64,000 nucleotides of DNA from Octopus vulgaris (Eukaryota). Of this stretch, positions 5,330 through 49,776 are shown one piece after another (position 1 is the first letter of the stretch; the number at the start of each line of letters is the position of its first letter). The stretch is from assembly GCA_951406725.2 (NCBI GenBank), contig OX597825.1:60822001-60886000 (forward strand), in the 5' to 3' direction. The notes under the pieces were generated by a model. That model ran no database searches, was not told the DNA's origin, and worked only from the letters and a program-made list of their open reading frames with translations. Both the position numbers and the translations under genes were made by a program.

Positions 5330-6488
5330 TTATGAATGCCTGTTTTCAAACTGATGATTGTTCTGATCCCGTCACTGCCGTGAACGCGAGGCTGTGGAAT
5401 GGAAAATATCAATAAACATTTCATTCGATATTTGTACGCATTTTCGTCCAGTAACTAATCATATCTCATCGACTTACTGGTTTTGAACCTTAAACTGTGT
5501 ATACCCATATAAAAATATCTAGTGATGAACCGTCTGTTGAACACGGAGTGTATGCTACTGAATCACTTCCTCTAATGCACCTATTTAGCAAAATCACATC
5601 AATGTATGCACTTACATGACTATGGTAATGTGGTGGGGCTTTCAGGAAATAAAATACTCCATCTTGAAATAAAACCTTTCTAGACATAAAATACTCCATC
5701 TTCAAGTAAAATCTTTGTGCAAATAAAATATTCCATCTTCAAAGTCTTCTTGAATAATTGGCATGGCGCATATTGCCGCAACAAGTTCATGTAAATGGGA
5801 ACAGTGTTATTAACGGCAAAGACGAATGGTCCAATTAATTCTTTGCATAATGAACTACACCGTATTGCATCTTCTAGCAAATCAACGTGACGTTCGTCTG
5901 TAATACATGGCTTCTCAGGATCCCCCCAGTAGGTGTAATTTCGGCAATTAATTGAGCCATTTAATTTAAATATAACCTTTTCGCCCCAAATGAATTTTTG
6001 ATGGCAGCAGTGCATCTTCTCCATATCACATCAAGTACAATCATCTTGGATGAGTAAATGAGCGATACTTGGAATGCAACTTTTTCAATGATAATGCCAA
6101 AAAATATAATGGACGCTTGATTTTTTATTTCCTGTCACACGAATCGCTTATCCAACGAATTTTCATAAACTCTCGTCATACGTTTCTGTTTTCCTTTTCT
6201 TGCTTTGTGGCGATCGTCGATTTCCAGGCCAATTTTTGCGGACAATTCCCTCTGCTTCAATCATTTGACATTCAAGTATGTTCAAGTCGCGTAGTTGGGT
6301 CTGTTTGAAACTCTTTTATAAACTGTCTTTGAATTTCGGCTGCGATTTTAATCTTTCAGTAGCATTTTATGATAAATTTCCTTTGTTCATTTCTTATTTT
6401 AGCCTCCTTCCTTATTTCTAAGGAGTTAAATCTAAAGAGAAACGAAAAGAATGTCAAAGTGCGTATACTCTTTTTGACTTACACTATA
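5330..6488 (-). pseudogene. Degenerate Tc1/mariner (DD37D/maT-like) transposon relic
   Basis: ORF fragments FIWGEKVIFKLNGSINCRNYTYW, LIGPFVF and FQDG...APPHYH...YTPCSTD..SLDIFIW correspond to the WSDE..F.LNG.VN..N..YW, IIGPFFF, FQQDGAPPHY and PPRSPDL.PLDFFLW motifs. TIR-like TATAGTGTAAGTCAAAAAG near 6470-6488. Frameshifted. Confidence 0.8.
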
Positions 6489-12125: not shown

Positions 12126-12206
<81 letters not shown>

Positions 12207-12244
12207 TAGATAAGAAAGTTTGTTTGGTAAAGCACGTGGGTGAA

Positions 12245-12583
12245 TATATAAGAAAATAGTAAAGTGTGAAAAAACGACAGAAGGCTTAAATGTTAAAAAA
12301 TATATATATTTGTGTCAAAATGTCTGGAGAATATTGGAAAAATTTTTTTTTCCCTTTCCTTAAAATGACATAATTTTAAAATTTTTAAAGAAATTACCGG
12401 TTTCGCGTGTAGCTTTTCAAATTTCTTGTGACGTTATGTTTATATTGCATGGAATTATCGTTGTTTTTATTTCCAGGAGATTTCTAAATAAGGGGAGGTA
12501 GTGAGTGATTTTTTCCGGTGTAGGGGAGATAATCGCTTAAAAAATTTTTTTCCCATTTCCTTGTTAATTTCTCTGTGTCAGTA
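12245..12583 (-). repeat. 3' pseudo-LTR of the Penelope-like element
   Basis: Reverse complement of 14031-14368 apart from homopolymer-length differences; overlaps the ORF stop codon. Confidence 0.95.
12388..12427 (-). ncRNA. Minimal type I hammerhead ribozyme, U3-A8 core variant
   Basis: AAGAAAT-TTGAAAA-GC-TACAC-GC-GAAA-CCGG-TA-ATTTCTT: perfect 7-bp stem I, 2-bp stem II, palindromic stem III; located in the pLTR as expected for Penelope-like elements. Confidence 0.82.
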
Positions 12584-14039
12584 TGTTCGGATGGTTGAGT
12601 CTGGGTTTGTACTTTTCAATGAAGAATGTTTCCTTGTTCAGTCTCATTTGTGTTGATGATCCGAAAGCACATTGGTAAAATGGGAAGATTAAAAATTGTG
12701 GCAGTAGTTGCTTTGCGCATTTCTCAATGTGCTCACTAAAAGGTATCATTCTATATTCTGGGAATGCAATCTGTTGTCGATGCAGTGTGCATCTGCGCCT
12801 GAGTGATAGTCCCGTGGAACCCACGTAGTCTTGGTGGCAGCCCGAGCATTTAATAACATAAATTATGTTTTCAGAGGCACAAGTAAAGTTAGATTTGATC
12901 TTAAATTTCTGTCCCTCTTTAAAGAAGAATTCTGATCCTTCCAATAGGTTAGGACATGTTGCACAGTTCGATCTACCACATTTTTTTACTTTTGCATCCG
13001 TAATTTTAGAAGACAATTTTGCCTTTGTGAGAATCTTTTTAAGTGATTTAGGCTGTTTGTAGCTTTTAATGATTTGGTGTATGTTTAGAATTTCCTTTAA
13101 TTTTGGGTTTTTATGAAGTATTGGTAAATTCTGGGTGATGATGGTGAAGGCTTCTTTGTTTCTGGGGTTGTATGTAGATATGTAAGGTAGTATTTTCGGG
13201 GAAGGTGTGTTGTTGTGTTGAACTTTTCTTAAAGTTTCTATGTTGATTTCTGTTGCACGTCTGATCCCATCCTCTATGGGTTGAGCTGGGTAATGTCTGT
13301 CAATTAGGGTGTTTTTGAGTTCTTGCAGTCTAAAGTTCCTGGTATTTTGTTCTGACACTATTGTGCATATCCTTCTTGCAAGGTTGAAGGGGATGTTTGT
13401 TTTAGTGTGTCTTGGGTGGCATGAATTAAAAAGAAGGTATTGTTTGGCGTCTGTGGCTTTGTAAAAAATGTCTGTTTCTATTTTAAGGTTAATTTTTTTA
13501 ATTAGTATATCCAAGAACGGGAGCTCCTTTTGGTTGTATTCCATTGTGAACTGTATATTTGGGTTTATGCTGTTCAATAGGTTTTTAAATTTTAGGAGTT
13601 TATCTATGTTTTCATTCCAGAGAATGAAACAATCGTCTAGGAATCGTTTCCAATTCTCTTTTATGTATTGAGAGAGGGAGTTTCCAAAGATTGATAGAGA
13701 TTCCTGGTAAATGATTATTTCCATGTATCCCATTGTTAAGTTCGCAATGACTGGTGCTGCCCTTGTACCCATAGCAATTCCGGATTTTTGACGGTAAAAT
13801 GTATTGTCAAACATGAAGTGGTTATTGTGTAGGATGAATTCAATTGATTTAGTAATGAATTCCTTACTGATCCTTTTTGGTATTTCTTCCGGAAATTGGT
13901 CTAACCAGAATTGTATTGCCTCCAGTCCATAATTATGAGGTATACTGGTATACAAGTTGACTACATCAAATGAAACCAGGATTGTTTCTTCCTTGGTTTT
14001 TTTTAAACCACCTTCCCAAAAAAATTTTTTTACTGACAC
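12564..14039 (-). CDS. Penelope-like reverse transcriptase plus GIY-YIG endonuclease (N-terminally truncated)
   Basis: RT motifs LVSFDVVNLYTSIP, GIAMGTRAAPVIANLTM, WKRFLDDCF, LPFLD, DIFYKATD..QYLLFNSCHP; Cys linker CGRSNCATC (Neptune-like); GIY-YIG NIIYVIKCSGCHQDYVGSTG..LRRRCTLH. The first ~14 aa come from the inversion junction. Confidence 0.95.
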   Translation of the reverse strand: MSVKKFFWEGGLKKTKEETILVSFDVVNLYTSIPHNYGLEAIQFWLDQFPEEIPKRISKEFITKSIEFILHNNHFMFDNTFYRQKSGIAMGTRAAPVIANLTMGYMEIIIYQESLSIFGNSLSQYIKENWKRFLDDCFILWNENIDKLLKFKNLLNSINPNIQFTMEYNQKELPFLDILIKKINLKIETDIFYKATDAKQYLLFNSCHPRHTKTNIPFNLARRICTIVSEQNTRNFRLQELKNTLIDRHYPAQPIEDGIRRATEINIETLRKVQHNNTPSPKILPYISTYNPRNKEAFTIITQNLPILHKNPKLKEILNIHQIIKSYKQPKSLKKILTKAKLSSKITDAKVKKCGRSNCATCPNLLEGSEFFFKEGQKFKIKSNFTCASENIIYVIKCSGCHQDYVGSTGLSLRRRCTLHRQQIAFPEYRMIPFSEHIEKCAKQLLPQFLIFPFYQCAFGSSTQMRLNKETFFIEKYKPRLNHPNILTQRN

Positions 14040-14361
14040 AGAGAAATTAACAAGGAAATGGGAAAAAAATTTTTTAAGCGATTATCTCCCCTACACCGGA
14101 AAAAATCACTCACTACCTCCCCTTATTTAGAAATCTCCTGGAAATAAAAACAACGATAATTCCATGCAATATAAACATAACGTCACAAGAAATTTGAAAA
14201 GCTACACGCGAAACCGGTAATTTCTTTAAAAATTTTAAAATTATGTCATTTTAAGGAAAGGAAAAAAAATTTTTCCAATATTCTCCAGACATTTTGACAC
14301 AAATATATATATTTTTTAACATTTAAGCCTTCTGTCGTTTTTTCACACTTTACTATTTTCT

Positions 14362-14368
<7 letters not shown>
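14031..14368 (+). repeat. Inverted 5' pseudo-LTR copy
   Basis: TACTGACACAGAGAAATTAA...CTATTTTCTTATATAT, the inverted duplicate of 12245-12583. Confidence 0.95.
14187..14226 (+). ncRNA. Minimal type I hammerhead ribozyme, U3-A8 core variant (second copy)
   Basis: Identical to 12388-12427; predicted cleavage after A14219 (GUA). Confidence 0.82.
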
Positions 14369-14393
<25 letters not shown>

Positions 14394-15329
14394 TATATGT
14401 ATGTATGTATGTATGTATATATATATATATATACATATGTCAGCACGGGAAATGTGTACAACAAAAAATTACGAAGTACGAGTACATAGACTATGAACTA
14501 TTTTTTCGAATAACGAAAGACCCAAATGGAAAACAAGACAAACAATACAAAGAACGACCCTTCATCAGTTGTTGGCTGTTTTACCACTCTCGTATTTCGA
14601 GTATTTAACAACAATACACGCTTTCGATAAAACAGTTGCTCCCGCAAAGCAAATTTTTTTAAAAATTGGGATTATGTGAAGGGTCAAAGATGGTAACACA
14701 AACAGGACAGTGAAAACAAACAGGAAGGGCTGCTAAGCCTAAACGAAGTTGTGGTGTCAAACGCGTAAATCAAGCTAGGACAGGAGACAGACAAGAACAC
14801 GTCTTCCTTGATCCAGCTAAAATGGAGAAAAAGAAACACAAGTTAGAAGAAAGATGGCCAATCGTCACGTGGGAGCCACGTGAGCAAGGAAGGAAGAGTG
14901 AAGGAGAGAGAGTGACAGACAGAGAACTGTGAAAGGGAGAGGAAAAAATTGGTGATAGGATAAGTGAGAAAAATACAAGAGAGGAGGGGATAGAAGAATA
15001 AGAACGAAAGAGTAATAGGATAGAATAATGGGAGAAGAGGAGGTAAAAAAATAAGAGACAGAAAGAGAGAAAAACGAAAGAGTAAAAAGATAGCAGAGTT
15101 CGCATCAGAATTGCAGAATAACTGGGCATTATATGTAGACCGATATGTTTATAAGTCTAGACAATCTTTGAAACGAAAGCGTCTATTCTTCAGATTGGGT
15201 GTGACTGGTTATACATTTGACGCATTTCATAAAACGTAGTGTCTTATATTTACCTAAGAAAACAAATTTTGGCATTTCGGTTTCTTGCATGAAGCATAAC
15301 TTTAAAGAATGTTTTTAACAAACAAAATA

Positions 15330-20100: not shown

Positions 20101-20850
20101 AGGCGGTGAGCGAGAAAATGATTAATGGTATTTCGTCTGCCGCTACGTTCTGAGTTCAAATTCCGCCGAGGTCGACTTTGCCTTTCATCCTTTCGGGGTC
20201 GATTAAATAAGTACCAGTTACGCACTGGGATCGATATAATCGACTTAATCCGTTTGTCTGTCCTTGTTTGTCCTCTCTGTGTTTAGCCCCTAATGGGTAG
20301 TAAAGAAATAGGTATTTCATCTGCCGTTATGTTCTAAGTTCAAATTCCGCCGAGGTCGTCGACTTTGCCTTTCATCCTTTCGGGGTCGATTAAATAAGTA
20401 CCAGTTACGCACTAGGATCGATTTAATCGGCTTAATCCGTTTGTCTGTCCTTGCCTGTCCTCTCTATGTTTAGCCCCTTGTGGGTAGCAAAGAAATAGGT
20501 ATTTTCTCCGTCTTTACATTCTGAGTTCAAATTCTGCCGATGTCAGCTTTGCTTTTTATCCTTTTGCGATCGATAAAATTAAAGTACCAGTTGAGTACTG
20601 GGGTCGATGTAATCGACTTAATCCGTTTGTCTGTCCTTGCCTGTCCTCTCTATGTTTAGCCCCTTGTGGGTAGCAAAGAAATAGGTATTTTCTCCGTCTT
20701 TACATTCTGAGTTCAAATTCCGCCGATGTCAGCTTTGCTTTTTATCCTTTTGCGATCGATAAAATTAAAGTACCAGTTGAGTACTGGGGCCGATGTAATC
20801 GACTTAGGCCCTACTACGAACTTGCTGGCATTGCATCAAAATTTGAAACC
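20101..20850 (+). mobile_element. SINE family B with four tandem ~185-bp units
   Basis: Unit starts GGTATTT at about 20127, 20311, 20498 and 20684. Confidence 0.88.
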
Positions 20851-20904
20851 AATATTTCCATCAACGATATTGCTGCTGCTGGTGTTGTTGCTTCTATTGC
20901 AGTT

Positions 20905-23026: not shown

Positions 23027-24045
23027 CACCGGGGAGCATAAATTTAGTCGAGTTAGAATTGATACTGGATTTCGAATAACTTTTAGCCTCTGAATCCAAA
23101 AATAATCCTATTTTCTCTGTATCACGTCTACTTTTCGAACTACAAGATACTCTCACTTTGTCTCAAAAACAAAGAACAACATAAAATTGCCGAATCTAAC
23201 AACTTTGTGTATACAATATTTTTAAAATTTACAGACAATGGAAAATAATAAAACATTAATTGACTCCAAATTCTGTACAAATTTATTTTGTTCATAGAAG
23301 TATATTGTGTGAAAGTATTTTAGATAAAAAAATTTACGCTTATAGCAGTTCCTGAAGTATTCAATCTGTGGACAATTTCGCTTCATATTCAAACAATAGT
23401 CAACCATCATGTTTACATCTCATCGATCCTGATATTGTTCCTCTATGACCTTCAAATCTTGGTGGAATCATTCACCATGTTCATAGCCGGCGTCACCAAG
23501 ATTTTCCGGGATATTGCTAAGATGGTTATGCATAAAATACAACTTGATCCCAAAGTGTGGTACCTAAAACAACCACCTTCAGTTTGCAATGCTTTAACGA
23601 ATTGCTTCATAAGACCTATTTTAATGTGCAGAGGTGGTATTATAATATTTATTATGTCAGCAAGTGGCTCATGTACAATGTGGGGTTCACCAGGTTTGAA
23701 GTTAGATCTTGGAGGTCAATTATTCTAAAGCCAATGCTTCTCTACAGCTTTGCTGTCCCACATACAGAGAAGGTATATCCGTATAGTTGATCAAAAATTT
23801 CAACATAGATGATCCAGTTGTACTTGTGATATTTCAGCAACCCAATGACTCTCTGTCCCCCTATTTGTGAACAATATGGAGACATCAAGTCTTAAGCTTC
23901 AGACCCCAGGACAAAATGCCTTCACACTTCAAACCACCAGTTCACTCAATTTTAATCTTTACCAAAAAAAAAACATGCCAACGAGTGCAAACATGTGCTA
24001 GGCTGAATTAAGATATTCTAAAACAAAATGCATTTGAAGACAGAC
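23027..24045 (-). pseudogene. Chapaev3-like (CMC superfamily) DNA transposon relic
   Basis: Minus-strand translation gives IIIPPLHIKIGLMKQFVKALQTEGGCFRY (about 23560-23650) and GE*FHQDLKVIEEQYQDR*DVNMMVDYCLNMKR (about 23375-23478), hallmark Chapaev3-type transposase motifs. CAC-initiated terminus CACCGGGGAGCATA at 23027. Stops and deletions present. Confidence 0.78.
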
Positions 24046-28390: not shown

Positions 28391-28547
28391 ACGTCTTTTA
28401 CTTCCAGCTTCCCCCATTCCTCATCCATCTCCTCCTCCACATCCTCATCCTCAAAATTTTCATCGCCGTCATTATTAGGGTAATCGGTTATTCAATTCTA
28501 GACTATTCCTAGATTAGTATGTATACTAATTAGTATATATACTCCTA

Positions 28548-28712
28548 GGCGTAGGAGTGGCTGTGTGGTAAATAGCTTGCTTACCAACCACATGGTTCCG
28601 GGCTCAGTCCCACTGCTTGGCATATTGGGGAAGTGTCTTCTACTATGGCCTCGGGCCTACCAAAGCCTTGTGAGTGGATTTGGTAGACGGAAACTGAAAG
28701 AAGCCCGTCGTA
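28548..28712 (+). mobile_element. SINE family A, 5' half
   Basis: GGCGTAGGAGTGGCTGTGTGGTAA...GAAAGAAGCCCGTCG. Confidence 0.9.
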
Positions 28713-28734
28713 TATATATATATATATATACTCT

Positions 28735-28933
28735 ATTTACTTGTTTCAGTTATTTAACTGCGGCCATGCTGGAGCACCGCCTTTAGTCGAGCAAATCGAC
28801 CCCGGGACTTATTCTTTGTAAGCCCAGTACTTATTCTATCGGTTTCTTTTGCCGAACCGCTAAGTGACGGGGACGTAAACACACCAGCATCGGTTGTCAA
28901 GCAATGCTAGGGGGGACAAACACAGACACACAA

Positions 28934-29006
<73 letters not shown>

Positions 29007-29171
29007 CACGACAGGCTTCCTTCAGTTTCCGTCTACCAAATCCACTCACAAGGCATTGGTCGGCCCGGGGCTATAGCAGAAGACACTTGCCCAAGATGCC
29101 ACGCAGTGGGACTGAACCCGGAACCATGTGGCTGGTTAGCAAGCTACTTACCACACAGCCACTCCTGCGCC
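28735..29171 (-). mobile_element. SINE family A, full length
   Basis: Reverse complement of the family consensus, inverted relative to 28548-28712. Confidence 0.92.
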
Positions 29172-29273
29172 TATCTATTTATATATACATACATACATAC
29201 ATACATACATACATACATTCATACATACATGCATGCATACATACATACATACATACATACATACATACATACA

Positions 29274-30810: not shown

Positions 30811-31059
30811 ATATTTCAATACCAGTTGATTTCACACTGTGATGTGACCAACCAACTCTGGGATCATCAACTGTAATTAACATTTTAACCTCTGCTTCTT
30901 GAGCATTCAGTACGTTAGTTCTTGTGTATCATTATTGTGAGTTTATGGTAATTTTGGAGCCTTGGTTCAGATTTTAGCAAGTCGTATTATATACCCTACT
31001 GATTCTATATTTTACACACAAACACACACACGCACACACACACACACACACACACATAT

Positions 31060-31472
31060 ATTTCTTTACTACCCACAAGGGGCTAAACATAGAGAGGATA
31101 AACAAGGACAGACAAATAGATTAAGTCGATTACATCGACCCCAGTCCGAAACTGGTACTTTATCTATCGACCCCGAAAGGATGAAAGGCAAAGTCAACCT
31201 CGGCGGAATTTGAACTCAGAACGTAGCGACAGACGAAATACCTATTTCTTTATTACCCACAAGGGGCTAAACACAGAGCGGACAAACAAGGACAGACATA
31301 GGTATTAAGTCAATTACATCGACCCCAGTGCGTAACTGGTACTTGATTTATCGACCCCGAAAGGATGAAAGGCAAAGTCGACTCCGGCGGAATTTGAACT
31401 CACAACGTAACACAGACGAAATACCGCTGAGCATTTCGCCCGGCGCGCTAACGTTTCTGCCAGCTCGCCGCC
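31060..31472 (-). mobile_element. SINE family B, two tandem units
   Basis: Two ~185-bp units plus a single head. Confidence 0.9.
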
Positions 31473-31652
31473 TATATATATACACACACACACATATATA
31501 TATATATATACATATACATACACATATATATATATATACATATAAGTATACATATATACATACACATACATAGATATACATATACATTCATATACATGTA
31601 TATATATATACATATGTGTACATATATAGAAATATATATACATATATACATA

Positions 31653-32065: not shown

Positions 32066-32351
32066 GAGAGATATATATGTACATGTATATATACAGATAT
32101 GCATATACACACACACATATATATATATATAGATGTGTATATATACATATTTATTTCTAATGAATACACGCGCTGGCCAATGAGAGATCCTGTACGTGGC
32201 TAATTGCTTTGCTAGAAATTCCAGCGCAGTTATCCTCTGATCATATCCCACCATCTTAAAGAAGAATATATTTGATAATATATGTTAGGTTCCTATATCT
32301 CATTGCAGAACAATGAGATGATTCTCATTGCAGAACAATGAGATGATAACA

Positions 32352-35300
32352 ATATACTCATCTAGAATTAGATACCACGTATACTCATCAATAATTTGAT
32401 ACCACGTATACCCATCTACATTCTGCTACCAAGTATATACGTCTAAAATCTCATACCAACTATACTCTTCTATAATCTGATAACAACCATACTCATCTAC
32501 AATCTGATACCAGGTATACTCATCTAGAATTAGATACCACGTATACTCATCAAAAATTTGATACCATGTATACTCATCAACATTCTGATAGCAAGTATAC
32601 ACATCTACAAACTTATACCAACTATAATCATCTATAATCTGATACCAAGTATACTCATCTACAATTTGATATCAAGTCTACTCATCTAGAGTAAGATACC
32701 ACGTACTCTCATCAATAATTTGATACCATGTATATATACCCATCTGCATTCTGATGCCAAGTATACTCATCTACAATCCGATACCAGGTATACTCATCTA
32801 GAATTAGATACCACGTATACCCATCAATAATTTGATACCATATATACTCATCTACATTCTGATAACAAGTATACTCGTCTAAAATCTCATACCAACTATA
32901 CTCATCTATAATCTGATAACAACTATACTCATCTACAATCTGATACCAGGTAAACTCATCTAGAATTAGATACCACGTATACTCATCAATAATTTGATAA
33001 CATGTATACTCATCTACATTCTGATACCAAGTATACTCTTCTACAATCTCATGCCAACTGTACTCATTTATAATCTGATACCAAGTATACTTATCAACAA
33101 TATGTTACCAAGTATACTCGTGTAGAATTAGATACCACGTATACTCATCAATAATTTGATACCATGTACACTCATCTACATTCTGATACCAAGTAAACTC
33201 GATACCATGTATACTCATCTACATTTTGATCCCAAGTATACTCGTCTAAAATCTCATTCCAACTATACTAATCTATAATCTGATACCAAGTATACTCATC
33301 TACAATCTGATACCAAGTATACTCATCTAGAATTAGATACCACGTATACTCATCAATACTTTGATACCATGTATACTCATCTACATTCTGATACCTCCTA
33401 TACTCATCTATAATCTGATACCAAGTATACTCATCTACAATCTAATACCAATTATATTCATCTAGAATTAGATACCACGTATACTCATCAAAAATTTAAT
33501 ACCATGTATACTCATCTACATTATGATAGCAAGTATACACATCTACAATCTTATACCAACTATACTTATCTATGATCTGATACCAAGTATACTCATCTAC
33601 AATCTGATACCAAGTATATTCATCTAGAATTAAATACCACGTATAATCATCAATAATTTGATACCATGTATACTCATCTACATTCTGATGCCAAATATAC
33701 TCATCTCTAATCTGATACCAACTATACTCATCTACAATCTGATACCAGGTATACTCATCTAGAATTAGATACAACGTATACTCATCAATAATTTGATAAC
33801 ATGTATACTCATCTACATTGTGATACCAAGTATACTCTTCTACAATCTCATACCAACTATACTCATCTATAATCTGTTACCAAGTATACTTATCTACAGT
33901 ATGTTACCAAGTATACTCGTGTAGAATTAGATACCACGTATACTCATCAATAATTTGATACAATGTATACTCATCTACATTCTGATACCAAGTATACTCG
34001 ACACCATGTATACTCATCTACATTCTGATACCAAGTATACTCATCTACAATCTGATAACATCTATACTCATCTATAATCTGATACCAAGCATACTCATCT
34101 ACAATCTGATGCCAAGTATACTCATCTAGTATTAGATACCACGTATACTCATCAATAATTTGATACCACGTATACTCATCAATACTTTGATACCATGTAT
34201 ACTCATCTACATTCTGATACCAAGTATACTCGTCTACAATCTCATACCAACTATAATCATCTATAATCTGATACCAAGTATACTCATCTAAAATCTCATA
34301 CCAAGTATACTCATCTACAATTAGATACCACGTATACTCATCAATAATTTGATACCATGTATACTCATCTACCTTCTGATACCTCCTATACTCATCTATA
34401 ATCTGATACCAAGTATACTCATCTACAATCTAATACCAATTATATTAATCTAGAATTAGATACCACGTATAATCATCAAACATTTAATACCATGTATACT
34501 CATCTACATTCTGATAGCAAGTATACACATCTACAATCTTATACCAACTATACTTATCTATGATCTGATACCAAGTATACTCATCTACAATTTGATATCA
34601 AGTATACTCATCTAGAATTAGATACCACGTACTCTCATCAATAATTTGATACCATGTATACTCATCTACATTCTGATGCCAAATATACTCATCTCTAATC
34701 TGATACCAACTATACTCATCTACAATCTGATACCAGGTATACTCATCTAGAATTAGATACAACGTATACTCATCAATAATTTGATAACATGTATACTCAT
34801 CTACATTGTGATACCAAGTATACTCTTCTACAATCTCATACCAACTATACTCATTTATAATCTGTTACCAAGTATACTTATCTACAGTATGTTACCAAGT
34901 ATACTCGTGTAGAATTAGATACCACGTATACTCATCAATAATTTGATACAATGTATACTCATCTACATTCTGATACCAAGTATACTCGATACCATGTATA
35001 CTCATCTACATTCTGATACCAAGTATACTCATCTACAATCTGAAAACATCTATACTCATCTATAATCTGATACCAAGCATACTCATCTACAATCTGATGC
35101 CAAGTATACTCATCTAGTATTAGATACCACGTATACTCATCAATAATTTGATACCATGTATACTCATCTACATTCTGATACCAAGTATACTCGTCTACAA
35201 TCTCATACTAACTATAATCATCTATAATCTGATACCAAGTATACTCATCTACAATCTCATACCAAGTATACTCATCTACAATTAGATACCACGTATACTC

Positions 35301-38300
35301 ATCAATAAGTTGATACCATGTATACTCATCTACATTCTAATACCTCCTATACTCATCTATAATCTGATACCAAGTATACTCATCTACAATCTAATACCAA
35401 GTATATTCATCTAGTATTAGATACCACGTATACTCATCGAATATTTAATACCATGTATACTCATCTACATTCTGATAGCAAGTATACACATCTACAATCT
35501 TATACCAACTATACTTATCTATAAACTGATACCAAGTATACTCGTCTACAATTTGATATCAAGTATACTCATCTAGAATTAGACACCACGTATAATTTGA
35601 TACCAAGTATACTCATCTACAATCTGATAACATCTATACTCATCTATAATCTGATACCAAGCATACTCATCTACAATCTGATGCCAAGTATACTCATCTT
35701 GTATTAGATACCACGTATACTCATCAATAATTTGATACCATGTATACTCATCTTCATTCTGATACCAAGTATACTCATCTACAATATGATACCAACTATA
35801 CTCATCTATAATCTGATACCACGTATACTCATCTACAATCTGATACCAAGTATACTCTTCTAGAATTAGATACCACGTATACACATCAATACTTTGATAC
35901 CATGTATACTCATCTACATTCTGATACCAAGTATACACCTCTACATTCTCATACCAAATATACTCATCTATAATCTGATACCAAGTATATTCATCTACAA
36001 TCTGATACCAAGTATACTCCTCTAGAATTAGATACCACTTATACTCATCTATAATCTGCTACCAAGTATACTCATCTATATTCTGATACCAAGTACACTC
36101 ATCAACAATCTGATACCACCTAAACTCATCTTTAATCTGATACTATGTATACTGATCTACAATCTGATACCAAGTATATTCATCTAGAATTAAATACCAC
36201 GTATAATCATCAATAATTTGATACCATGTATACTCATCTACATTCTGATACCAAGTATACTAATCTACAATCTTTTACCAACTATATTCATCAGTAATAT
36301 GATACCACGTATACTCATCTACAATTTGATATCAAGTATACTTATCTAGTATTAGATACCACGTATACTCATCATTAATTTGATAACATAAAGACTCATC
36401 TACATTCTGATACCAAGTAACCTCCTCTACAATCTCATACCAAATATACTCATTTATAATCTGATACCAATTTTACTCATCTACAATATGATACCAAGTA
36501 TACTCGTGTAGAATAAGATAACATGTATACGCATCAATAATTTGATACCATTTATACTCATCTACATTCTGACACCAATTATACTCATCTACAATCTAAT
36601 ACCTAGTATACTCATCTATAATCTGATACCAAGCATACTCATCTACAATCTGATACCAGGAATACTCATCTATAATCTGATACCAAGCATACTCATCTAC
36701 ATTCTGATACCAGGTATACTCTCCTACAATCTCATACCAACTATACTCATTTATAATCTGATACCAAGTATACTCGTGTAGAATTAGATACCACGTATAC
36801 TCATCAATAATTTGATACCATGTTTACTCATCTACATTCTGATACCAAGTATACTCGATACCATGTATACTCATCTACATTCTGATACCAAGTATACTCA
36901 TCTATAATCTGATACCAAGGATACTCATCTACAATCTGATACCAGGTATACTCATCTAGAATTAGATACCACGTTTACACATCAATAATTTGATAACATG
37001 TATACTCATCTACATTCTGATACCAAGTATAATCTTCTACAATCTCATACCAACTATACTCATTTATATTCTGATACCAAGTATACTTATCTACAATATG
37101 TTAGCAAGTATGCTCGTGTAGAATTAGTTACCACGTATACTCATCAATAATTTGATACCATGCATACTCATCTACATTCTGATACCAAGTATACTCACCT
37201 ACAATCTGATACCACCTATACTCATCTATAATCTGATACCAATATACTCATCTACAATATGATACCAAGTATACTCGTTTAGAATTAGATACCAAGTATA
37301 CTCATCAATAATTTGATACCAAGTTTACTCATCTACATTCTGATACCAAGTATACTCATCTACAACCTGATTCCAAGCATACTCATCTACAATCTGCTAC
37401 CAAGTATACTCATCTAGAATTAGATACCACGTATACTCATCAATAATTTGATATCATGTATACTCATCTACATTCTGATACCAAGTATACACCTCTACAA
37501 TTTCATACCAACTATACTCATCTATAATCTGATACCAAGTATATTCATCTACTATATGATACCTAGTATACTCCTCTAGAATTAATTACCACGTATACTC
37601 ATCAATAATTTGATACCATGTATACTCATCTACATTCTGATATCAAGTATACTCGATACCATGTATACTCATGTACATGCTGATACCAAGTATACTCATC
37701 TACCATCTGATACCACCTATACTCATCTTTAATCTGATACCAAGTATACTTATCTACAATCTGATACCAAGTATATTCATCTAGAATTCGATACCACGTA
37801 TACTCATATATAACTTGATACCATGTATACTCATCTACATTCTGATACCAAGTATACTCATCTACAATCTTATACCAAATATATTCATCTATAATCTGAT
37901 ACCACGTATACTCATCTTCAATTTGATATCAAGTATACTCATCTAGAATTAGATACCACGTATACTCATCAATAATTTGATATCTTTTATACTCATCTAC
38001 ATTCTGATACCAAGTATACACCTCTACAATTTCATACCAACTATACTCATCTATAATCAGATACCAAGTATATTAATCTACTATCTGATACCTAGTATAC
38101 TCCTCTAGAATTAATTACCACGTATACTCATCAATAATTTGATACCATGTATACTCATCTACATTCTGATATCAAGTATACTTGATACCATGTATACTCA
38201 TGTACATGCTGATACCAAGTATACTCATCTACCATCTGATACCACCTATACTCATCTTTAATCTGATACCAAGTATACTTATCTACAATCTGATACCAAG

Positions 38301-39246
38301 TATATTCATCTAGAATTCGATACCACGTATACTCATATATAACGATACCATGTATACTCATCTACATTCTGATACCAAGTATACTCATCTACAATCTTAT
38401 ACCAAATATATTCATCTATAATCTGATACCACGTATACTCATCTTCAATTTGATATCAAGTATACTCATCTAGAATTAGATACCACGTATACTCATCAAT
38501 AATTTGATAACATGTATACTCATCTACATTCTGATACCAAGTATACTCTTCTACAATCTCATACCAAATATACTCATTTATAATCTGATACCAATTATAC
38601 TCATCTACAATATGATACCAAGTATACTCGTGTAGAATTAGATACCACGTATACTCATCAATAATTTGATACCATTTATACTCATCTACATTCTGACACC
38701 AAGTATACTCATTTGCAATCTGATACCTAGTATACTCATCTCTTATCTGATACCAAGTATACTCATCTAGAATTAGATAACACGTATACTCATCAATAAT
38801 TTGATACCATGTATACTCATCTACATTCTGATACCAAGTATACTCATCTACAATCTCATACCAACTATACTCATTTATAATCTGATACCAAGTATACTTA
38901 TCTACAATATGTTACCAGTATACTCGTGTAGAATTAGATACAACGTATACTCTTCAATAATTTGATACCATGTATACTCATCTATATTCTGATACCAAGT
39001 ATACTCGTCTACAATCTCATACCAACTTTATTCATCTATAATCTGATACCAGTATACTCATCTACAATCTGATACCAAGTATACTCATCTAGAATTAGAT
39101 ACCAAGTATACTCATCAATAATTTGATACCATTTATACTCATCTACATTCTGATACGATGTATACTCTTCTACAATCTCATACCAACTATACTCACTAAT
39201 AATCTGATACCAAGTATACTCATCTACAATATGATACCAAGTATAC
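32352..39246. repeat. 27-bp satellite array (~255 monomers) with higher-order repeats
   Basis: Consensus TATACTCATCTACAATCTGATACCAAG; six variants cycle in a fixed order (162 bp); diagnostic CCTCC variant at 33394, 34382 and 35343. Confidence 0.97.
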
Positions 39247-40186
39247 GCGATACATTACGTTGTTTATAAACAAGAAGGGGTCAATATTTACTTCGAAGCC
39301 CTCATTGAACATTCTACAGTTATGCTTTTCTCTCTTCCCGTCGTGTTATCTCAAGGAGATATAGACTTTTGTGACTCACTATTGTTATACATTTTTCCTG
39401 CCGAGACGTTGTCTCCGTCCAATTTTACATACTGTAAGCAATAGCCGCAAAACTACTCGCATTTACAATCTTCTATGTGCGCTCGTGTGTGAGTGCTGTT
39501 GGAGGCTTAGCTTGTTGTTGTTTTAAAATGTTATGCGTGTGTTGCAGTTCTTATTGCTAAGCAAGTCATTGAAAATATTCTCTGTGTTGTTATCAAGAAT
39601 AAAGTCATTATACTTTCCATTTAAATTTTATTTGTTCCGCTGCAAAACATTCTTGTTCATCGAATATTGTGTTTGTTTGATTTTTTTTTTTTTACTTGTT
39701 TACTGTCTGCAGAAGCATAGTTTGCTTCCGTTCGAGATTTATGTGTCCCCTCTTAAAGAAGCCATTTCATAATATAAATAAATGAAAAAGAAAAGCTTCT
39801 TTTTAAGTCTTCATCTTTTTACTTTTTTTGTCTCAAAGATGGCGGACAGGATGAAATAAAATGCAAACAATTAAGCAGATACTTTCTTATATAGAAGCTT
39901 GACATAAAGTAAACACAATTTGATTAAATCCTACTCCAAATATTTAATACTTGAAAATTCCATGACAAAAGGTTTCGAAAACACAAAACAACGATAACCT
40001 CAAAACATCATAAATATCAGAAATACTGCGATAATAATTATGACTTCTGATTAAAGCAAAGGACCAGGATTTTTTTTTAAGGAAAGGATTGGTCGATATC
40101 AACACTCTCATTACTTCGCTGCTACTTCCTTCTATCGACCTTGGAAGAATAAATGACAAAGTAGACCCTAGCGGAACTAGAACTCA

Positions 40187-49075: not shown

Positions 49076-49359
49076 AAAGAAAATATATATGACTCAAATA
49101 TGTGAATATGTGTGTATGTACGAAAGTATGTATGCGTATGTGTAAATATATACGCACATGCATACATACTTTCGTGCATACACACACACATTCACACACA
49201 CACACATATATATGCTGCGTGTTATGCTTCTACTTGTCCTCGGAAACCACGTGACAACCAGCGTTGGTTTGTTTATGGCACCGTAATTTAGTGGCTCGGA
49301 AAAGAGACCGATAAATATAAGAAAAAGTAGGCATAAAAAAATAATTACTGGAGTCTATT

Positions 49360-49776
49360 ATTTCTTTACTGCCCATTAGGGGCTAAACACAGAGGGGACA
49401 AACAAGGACAGACACTTGGATTAAGTCGATTACATCGACCTCAGTGCATAACTGGTACTTAATTTATCAACCCCGAAAGGATAAGAGGCAAAGTCGACCT
49501 CGACGGAATTTGAACTCAGAACGTAACGGCAGACGAAATACCTATTTCTTTACTACCCACAGGGGGCTAAACACAGAGAGGACAAACAAGGACAGACAAA
49601 CGGATTAAGTCGATTATATCGACACCAGTGCGTAACTGATAATTATTTAATCGACCCCGAAAGGATGAAAGGCAAAGTCGACCTCGGCGGAATTTGAACT
49701 CAGAACGTAGAGGCAAACGAAATACTGCTAAGCATTTCGCCCAGCGTGCTAACGATTCTGCCAGATTACCACCTTC
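49360..49776 (-). mobile_element. SINE family B dimer inserted in an old family A body, 13-bp TSD
   Basis: ACTGGAGTCTATT at 49347-49359 and 49777-49789. Confidence 0.92.

Follow-up and report, generated by a model that had tools for sequence, protein, structure and literature searches.

The 27-bp tandem repeat that occupies 6.9 kb of this assembly of O. vulgaris raises the question of whether its nested layers of repetition signal a function, in particular at a centromere, or record a history of duplication. We consider it probable that the array is an ordinary, putatively euchromatic, non-coding 27-bp minisatellite with a well-preserved duplication history, a joint estimate covering its identity as a minisatellite, layering that arose without selection and the lack of a sequence-specific function.

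In the window, i.e. the whole 64-kb stretch of DNA analysed, TRF reports a period of 27 at 32,344-39,246; the first complete monomer begins at 32,353 and the array tail (39,242-39,253) is the beginning of a 16-mer-like junction (Table 1). Decomposition yields 245 monomers of 27 bp, six of 16, three of 26, two of 25 (one being the first monomer, clipped by the start point chosen for the decomposition), one of 31 and one of 17 bp. The array is AT-rich (31% GC) and contains all six monomer types named in the initial annotation, which differ pairwise by 1-6 positions. The type D slot is most often absent (35 D monomers vs 41-47 for each other type), as slippage among the near-identical C, D, E and F types would predict. 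Rfam and ARAGORN found 0 matches and 0 genes in the window, an exact search of metagenome contigs with the type-A monomer gave 0 matches, and the literature search found neither a description of the repeat nor its core motif, which repeat libraries deposited outside papers may contain.

Table 1. Coordinates of the array, its internal duplications and its flanking features in the window
Feature	Position	Strand	Remarks
27-bp minisatellite array	32344..39253	+	258 monomers, 42 units of six types (ABCDEF, 162 bp), partial monomer at each end
Recent block duplication, copy 1	33318..34305	+	988 bp, 37 monomers, 6 units, one extra B monomer; 98.0% identical to copy 2
Recent block duplication, copy 2	34306..35266	+	961 bp
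Partial third copy of the 988/961-bp block	35267..35563	+	297 bp, 95-96% identical to the heads of copies 1 and 2
Most recent block duplication, copy 1	37405..37933	+	529 bp, 20 monomers, 3 units; 98.9% identical to copy 2
Most recent block duplication, copy 2	37934..38460	+	527 bp
First of six 43-bp out-of-register duplications	33158..33243	+	Junction reads as a "16-bp monomer"
Example of an older unit pair, P then Q	32951..33317	+	
Perfect 25-bp tandem duplication with short hairpin	32298..32347	+	Abuts the left array end; hairpin read from sequence
Unique right flank	39254..40180	.	One contig of run X4 across junction and flank, 8 differences in 966 bp

The order A>B>C>D>E>F>A is followed in 203/257 adjacent pairs, whereas 10,000 shuffles average 40.5 such pairs and never exceed 65. 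The fixed order of six types in a 162-bp unit proposed in the initial annotation therefore stands, and the random monomer order that by its own account would have undone this reading is not what formal analysis returns. A type-free measure gives the same picture: identity at a lag of six monomers is 0.850 vs 0.806 (maximum 0.818 in 1,000 shuffles). With identities of 0.88-0.93 within types and 0.70-0.86 between types, the array has the structure of a higher-order repeat, i.e. its types are ordered and monomers at the same position are closer to each other than neighbours are. Among the 42 units, 25 hold six monomers, eight hold five, five hold eight, two hold seven, one holds four and one ten; the 20 full 162-bp units have a mean identity of 89.4% (range 81.5-99.4%). 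The AccI/BstZ17I (GTATAC) digest that had been proposed would yield a 27-bp ladder: its 167 sites in the array cut most monomers, and 96/166 gaps measure 27 bp. TCTAGA (XbaI), with 26 sites and 10/25 gaps of 162 bp, is better suited to displaying the unit.

Above this unit, the 988- and 961-bp super-repeats one monomer apart and the duplicate of about 529 bp were both recovered; the copies of the former are separated by 19 mismatches and one 27-bp gap, those of the latter by 6 mismatches. Both duplications are recent. The claim of three nested levels holds insofar as the hierarchy is real, and indeed deeper than claimed, but the third level consists of two one-off duplications of unlike length, with 2 to 2.3 copies each, and is no periodic higher-order repeat. 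The additional depth is an older layer of ordered unit subfamilies, absent from the initial annotation. Units of subfamily P start at 32951, 33750, 34738, 36337, 36947, 38461, 38758 and 39080, and a Q unit follows directly in 7/8 cases, the eighth P being terminal. The order in unit similarity survives removal of the recent duplicates (r = 0.284 among 31 units, a value reached in 0/2,000 shuffles), indicating that block duplication was ongoing throughout the history of the array. The recurrent 16-bp monomers (starting at 33194, 33993, 34981, 36850, 37648 and 38177) were indeed copied along with blocks, as had been noted, but they are no deleted monomers: they are the junctions of one 43-bp out-of-register tandem duplication copied six times, the two halves showing 1-4 mismatches at 6/6 sites.

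Combining these layers, we suggest that (i) a short run of 27-mers would have diverged into six types 1-6 differences apart, (ii) a six-monomer block would have taken over as the expanding unit, pairing in register (about 89% identity) being favoured over pairing out of register (70-86%), (iii) units would have diverged into subfamilies while blocks of 2-12 units were re-duplicated and the 43-bp slip was carried to six places, and (iv) the 988-bp and 529-bp duplications would have been the last events. The pathway may have been unequal sister exchange or template-slipped repair synthesis, which are indistinguishable by sequence. The layering is likely to have arisen without selection, by repeated tandem duplication and by deletion between misaligned similar copies, and the array most likely has no function that depends on its sequence and acts as a VNTR-type locus of variable length. 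Smith-type models yield periodicity without selection (PMC8122249, in part). In a simplified neutral toy model with 90 tuned runs, stopped at the observed identity of 0.81, 10 runs yielded both a long duplicated block and an excess at higher order: 5/15 and 4/15 in the two best settings, 1/15 in another and 0/45 across the remaining three, by a test (lag excess) that is weaker than the end-to-end regularity of the real array. The periods obtained were arbitrary, from 3 to 12, so six is not special. A first, untuned set of 30 runs was discarded; all of them diverged far past the observed identity and were not comparable. Counting against our explanation are this low success rate of the toy model, the mildly unlikely freedom of the array from insertions and the excess depth in two public runs, X4 and X9, both described below.

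The array had also been called young or actively homogenised. This fits the two kb-scale duplications only. The mean divergence of monomers from their type consensus is about 5.7% throughout the array (3.9-6.6% in bins of 30 monomers), like that of the younger SINE-like copies in the neighbourhood, which have diverged by 4-9%. The flanks are rich in SINE-like repeats and microsatellites, and interspersed repeats reach both array ends. Neither kind of element lies inside the array, as had been observed, whereas 28 dispersed-repeat sites in 57 kb predict 3.4 per 6.9 kb (P of none = 0.034); the longest flank stretch lacking both is 3,855 bp.

This uninterrupted state is among the points for a centromeric or pericentromeric satellite whose 162-bp unit was selected for nucleosome positioning, as are a unit length within the common 150-180 bp satellite range (PMC5615363, in part) and the lack of any description of an octopus centromere in the literature searched. 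We nevertheless regard this reading as very improbable. The 162 bp correspond to 15.4 helical turns, and the power of AA/TT/TA at 10-10.5 bp is 0.07-0.12 in the array vs 0.13-0.46 in one flank; without 10-bp phasing, the nucleosome-scale length is so far a coincidence. No block of conserved positions beyond base-specific rates is found (heterogeneity P = 0.14, best window P = 0.12), and the hairpin potential of the array is not unusual (z = -0.99). A centromeric array might be expected to be long and embedded in satellite, to have units as alike as those of alpha-satellite higher-order repeats (>95% or 97-100% identity; PMC5615363 and PMC8122249, in part) and to carry a conserved protein-binding box or phasing signal. 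Here, 6.9 kb lie between ordinary interspersed repeats, the units are 89% alike and neither box nor phasing is present. Even by the highest depth ratio (see below), the repeat would amount to roughly 60 kb, compared with the 87.5 Mb annotated as satellite in O. vulgaris (PMC13282606, in part). A weaker point is that the type-A CpG is not hypermutable (1/84 vs 82/2,004, P = 0.26), which may argue, weakly, against long-term germline methylation. The centromere-type organisation suggested in the initial annotation is thus unsupported, given a one-off upper level, no box, no phasing, flanks of SINEs and microsatellites and an apparent abundance in the tens of kb; the array gives no sign of centromeric or other function.

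Its closest likeness is to minisatellites and VNTRs (PMC8122249 and PMC5615363, in part), with a repeat unit within 10-100 bp, an array within 0.5-30 kb, interspersed variant repeats, euchromatin-like surroundings and longer units built through cycles of duplication and divergence. Minisatellites form arrays of 0.5-30 kb in euchromatin (PMC8122249, in part), and both the length of this array, 6.9 kb, and its neighbourhood of SINEs and microsatellites agree with that; the octopus array differs in being AT-rich and in a six-monomer period that is unusually regular from end to end. It shares with primate alpha-satellite higher-order repeats the ordered, diverged types, 70-86% alike, in a repeated multimer, but the monomer has 27 rather than 171 bp and unit identity is 89% rather than >95-97% (PMC8122249 and PMC5615363, in part); moreover, the array spans only 42 units, and its upper levels are one-off duplications.

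The Helitron-carried satellites of Crassostrea gigas are likewise short molluscan tandem arrays outside obvious heterochromatin, with up to about 90 monomers compared with 258 here (PMC10048060, in part). That our array is the internal tandem repeat of a Helitron- or Helentron-type element, for which this molluscan precedent, common in oysters (PMC10048060, in part), and the small hairpin-bearing duplication at the left array edge might be adduced, is extremely unlikely: no element ends or terminal inverted repeats were found, neither array-adjacent flank matches the rest of the window, and the right flank, on which the presence of multi-copy element sequence beside the array was judged, is single-copy in reads, with no variant family at 85% likeness. 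Almost as doubtful is a decayed coding repeat on the minus strand, (WYQIVDEYT)n, open through all six consensus types. That frame has 0 stops in the 54 codons of the consensus unit vs 2-9 in the other five, array ORFs reach 159 aa and synonymous changes are in excess (35 vs 27.7 expected, P = 0.023, uncorrected for six frames). Yet stops are not avoided (25 stop-creating changes vs 24.1 +/- 2.9 expected; 42/382 in all, copied with the duplications), and with about 10% of substitutions making a stop (47/486), 12 type-defining changes without one have a chance near 0.3. The length of 12 monomers deviates from 27 bp, in most cases with a shift of the frame. No protein was found by word-index searches and no family by Pfam; among 81 HMMER matches, the eight inspected are unrelated periodic stretches with other units, and of four targets looked up, the three with names, from two snails and a plant, are all singleton gene models. 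A coding origin was rejected on the lack of stop avoidance, the frame-shifting monomers and the lack of a protein family.

Public reads bear on whether the assembled copies are real and on whether the repeat is confined to this locus. Three studies, under three organism labels, contain the right junction and flank at about 99% identity; the flank is single-copy in three runs from two of these studies, and the third study spans the junction and part of the flank. In X4 and X9 one contig of even depth covers the flank, in X6 two do; the flank contig of run X1 ends at 39,518. No public run holds half of the sampled array words, the best share being 0.25, a low value that would fit near-identical super-repeats created by misassembly but may also reflect the loss of rare variants from contigs, as only 27.5% of the distinct 31-mers in the array occur twice or more. 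Since 19 and 6 substitutions, along with indels, separate the copies, which carry older variants common to other parts of the array, and since independent contigs confirm the right array junction, an assembly artefact is scarcely credible.

Array words occur in public runs under 4 organism labels from 6 studies. No RNA run is among those listed, which is evidence neither for nor against transcription. Depth was compared in X1, X4, X6 and X9, whereas X2, X3, X5, X7, X8 and X10-X13, with small word shares, contributed their labels only. The terminal monomer is about 3,100 times as deep as the flank in X4 (at most 71 contigs) and 1,600 times in X9 (at most 34 contigs), compared with ceilings from one array alone of about 363 and 264; no array 31-mer occurs >17 times. 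The repeat appears several-fold more abundant in these two samples, and the family may be multi-locus; the highest ratio would correspond to roughly 60 kb, i.e. an abundance of tens of kb. The array might then belong to a low-copy satellite family dispersed over several loci, or represent the short allele of a far longer array, with homogenisation due in part to exchange between arrays. We hold this to be unlikely, as summed contig depth is no copy number, a single study, with possible library bias, supplied both X4 and X9, X6 (259-364) lies at or slightly over the one-array range for its contig number, X1 (116) lies inside that range and the window has no second copy. The ratios, again no copy numbers, vary about 30-fold among the 4 runs. 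The local mechanism would in any case be identical to that of our preferred explanation.

If that explanation, an ordinary minisatellite layered without selection, is correct, the array carries little biological weight and offers a clean, small worked example of nested repeats in a 7-kb locus. With a flank about 99% alike under three organism labels, it would then be a likely multi-allelic marker for closely related taxa. It also cautions that a higher-order repeat of about 160 bp does not by itself mean a centromeric one. More speculative, and rather improbable, is the view that a satellite is just emerging here: a minisatellite with 27-bp repeats would have settled into its 162-bp unit and, as the depths in X4 and X9 may hint, would already be undergoing several-fold expansion in certain individuals or sister species. 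If so, the array would be a natural, datable model for the origin of nucleosome-sized higher-order satellites. It would also be a first candidate for a repeat of heterochromatin or of centromere-adjacent DNA in a group whose centromeres no paper found in the literature search describes. Should the hint in the depth data reflect arrays that are far larger in relatives, the locus would matter more, since comparing alleles could then reveal how a minisatellite becomes a higher-order satellite.

As to the remaining surroundings, the Pfam scan covered 113 translations, 112 flank ORFs and one array ORF, with exons of at least 62 codons in reach, and found no host-gene domain in the flank ORFs. Once the SIR2 match of a retroelement ORF and two other weak matches had been discounted, the only meaningful match was that of the same ORF to RVT_1, just below the cut-off.

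Wrap-around alignment decomposed the 27-bp tandem array into 258 monomers, from which the six monomer types named in the initial annotation were recovered as consensus sequences, with type D off at one position among unambiguous members. Monomers are 88-93% alike within a type and 70-86% alike between types. The fixed order ABCDEF is seen in 203 of 257 adjacent pairs (shuffles: mean 40.5, maximum 65) and, independently of typing, identity at a lag of six monomers is 0.850 versus 0.806. The proposed 162-bp unit is likewise supported: 25 of 42 units have six monomers, and identity among the 20 intact 162-bp units is 89.4%. The super-repeats of 988 and 961 bp are exactly as claimed, differing by 19 mismatches and one extra monomer, and have a partial third copy of 297 bp; the smaller duplicate was also borne out (529 versus 527 bp, 6 mismatches).

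The recurrent 16-bp monomers had been read as deleted monomers; instead, each lies where the two halves of a 43-bp tandem duplication meet, and the duplication spans the end of B, the whole of C and the start of D. Given that the two halves are 1-4 letters apart at all six sites, six units most likely inherited a single slip out of register. The tail of the array looks like the beginning of such a junction. Shared variants additionally mark older subfamilies of units, P and Q, which had not been reported: seven of the eight P units have a Q unit directly after them and the remaining one is terminal. Even with recent duplicates removed, unit similarity predicts neighbor similarity (r = 0.284 for 31 units and 0.257 for 28 units; 0 of 2,000 shuffles), and older block pairs are 92-95% alike. 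Thus, of the three nested levels proposed initially, the nesting stands and the fixed tiers do not, since the 43-bp slip, the older subfamilies and the older block pairs make the array a continuum of duplications of varied lengths and ages. If the O. vulgaris scale in an excerpt of PMC13282606 (JC 0.065 = 18 My) applies, monomer divergence would date back ~16 My, and the two duplications ~2.8 and 1.6 My, assuming taxon, clock and absence of conversion.

Passages of PMC5615363 describe higher-order repeats (HORs) as arising when several adjacent monomers are amplified and homogenized jointly, and longer units as being built from short ones via cycles of duplication and divergence; part of PMC8122249 states that periodicity is obtainable from unequal exchange without selection. 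A toy model was restricted to point mutation and similarity-favored duplication/deletion. A first, untuned set overshot divergence. When the model was halted at the observed identity, a higher-order excess (0.058 or more) and a long near-identical block appeared together in 5/15 and 4/15 runs in two settings, 1/15 in a third and 0/45 in the remaining three, with periods of 3 to 12 monomers. The runs with both features therefore indicate that neutral turnover can produce the pattern, though not always; in the model it can do so if exchange prefers similar partners and is frequent relative to mutation. We consider it probable that the layering of the array would have arisen in this way, by point mutation combined with duplication and deletion between similar partners.

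Part of the array words was found in 13 public sequencing runs (X1-X13; 6 studies, 4 organism labels), at a share never above 0.25 and highest in X1-X3 (0.23-0.25); no RNA run was among them, which is evidence neither way. The last monomer and 0.93 kb of right flank were compared with four runs. In X4 a single contig runs across the whole stretch with 8 differences. Coverage begins at 39,228 in X9 (6 differences, 28 gap letters) and takes in the junction and 39,215-39,797 in X6. In X1, a small run of 68 million letters whose library may have been reduced or enriched, it takes in the junction and only 39,244-39,518 of the flank (depth 159, 0 differences). As the flank is flat single-contig sequence, the junction is real and does not mark the edge of a multi-copy element, and organism labels A, B and C all share it. 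An element-borne array and an assembly artefact are the least probable readings. In X1, X4 and X9, loose ends behind the monomer lead on to an A-like one, so these runs share the F-to-A order as well. That the array belongs to a multi-locus or long-allele family is unlikely, yet the best placed of the alternatives. Relative to the flank, the monomer has a summed depth of 116 in X1, 259-364 in X6, 1,594 in X9 and 3,104 in X4; for this array by itself, de Bruijn simulation gave 50-534, with a ceiling of 264 for 35 contigs and 363 for 70. X4 and X9 thus lie about six- to nine-fold above one-array values; this excess is a lead only, because summed depth is not copy number and a single study supplied both runs. 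At face value it would correspond to about 60 kb of repeat, tiny against the 87.5 Mb (3.12%, 80 families) of annotated O. vulgaris satellite in the excerpted PMC13282606.

A decayed coding repeat is very improbable. One minus-strand frame, (WYQIVDEYT)n, runs through the consensus unit without a stop, but changes that create stops are as frequent as neutrality predicts (25 versus 24.1 +/- 2.9 expected) and a small synonymous excess (35 versus 27.7, P = 0.023) is lost on correction for six frames. Word-index and Pfam searches found no protein relatives, and the 8 examined of 81 HMMER matches are unrelated periodic stretches. Long 9-residue repeats occur in P0121, P0122 and P0127, which are public gene models (two snails, one plant); these repeats are probably minisatellites taken into predicted exons. 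A centromeric role, as the suggested likeness to centromere-type HORs would imply, is if anything slightly less probable still: the array lacks the identity, size and conserved box of alpha-satellite-type HORs. It works like higher-order tandem repeats generally, and the sizes of its unit and array place it among minisatellites. Literature searches gave no prior description of the repeat, although separately kept repeat libraries may include it.

The monomer has no conserved block beyond base-specific rates (P = 0.14), the array lacks 10-bp AA/TT/TA periodicity (162 bp being 15.4 turns), and folding of one unit is no more stable than that of shuffled sequences (z = -0.99). The CpG of type A is not hypermutable in a weak test (1/84 changed); part of PMC9476566 reports octopus satellites as relatively methylated. 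The lack of insertions has P = 0.034 at flank density, and growth from a small seed with shedding of blocks by unequal exchange would explain it without selection.

Features of the array and its surroundings (window positions)
Feature	Position	Strand	Remarks
Frame resembling a decayed Tc1/mariner transposase piece	5,683-6,030	minus	no Pfam match
Penelope-like retroelement fragment	12,142-14,438	minus	unbroken ORF 12,567-14,081, 505 codons; RT end, relatives carry GIY-YIG
Inverted repeat of this fragment	12,142-12,583 and 14,031-14,438		442 bp, 90% identical
SINE-like, head-to-tail	20,111-20,856		3.6 copies
Fragment with motif PPLHIKIGLMKQFVKAL	23,324-23,787	minus	no Pfam match
420-bp dispersed repeat	28,534-29,234		two copies, apparently fused in opposite orientation
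SINE-like, head-to-tail	31,059-31,479		2.0 copies
Perfect 25-bp tandem duplication	32,298-32,347		adjoins left edge of array; hairpin, 8-9-bp stem
Array	32,344-39,253		partial monomer from 32,344, first full monomer from 32,353
Decomposed region	32,355-39,241
Super-repeats, 988/961 bp	33,318-35,266
Super-repeats, 529/527 bp	37,405-38,460
Motif AAGATGGCGG	39,836-39,848		in single-copy, CpG-containing right flank; possible chance occurrence
SINE-like, head-to-tail	49,358-49,775		2.0 copies

The window has a GC content of about 34%, and the + strand of the array is strongly C-skewed (GC skew about -0.5). (TA)n and other microsatellites are abundant throughout, and dispersed repeats of three families occupy 28 sites. 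We take these SINE-like repeats to be octopus elements. A SINE-like element forms head-to-tail arrays with a period of 184-186 bp, through which satellite-like DNA might arise by a second route. Motif PPLHIKIGLMKQFVKAL is, we presume, of the kind in DNA-transposon-derived proteins and AAGATGGCGG presumably YY1-type. The named eukaryotic relatives of the retroelement ORF are molluscs, the closest named one by identity bearing an Argonauta label (54%), which makes an octopod source of the DNA likely. The retroelement family may be recent because a 326-aa relative, P0002, is 99% identical.
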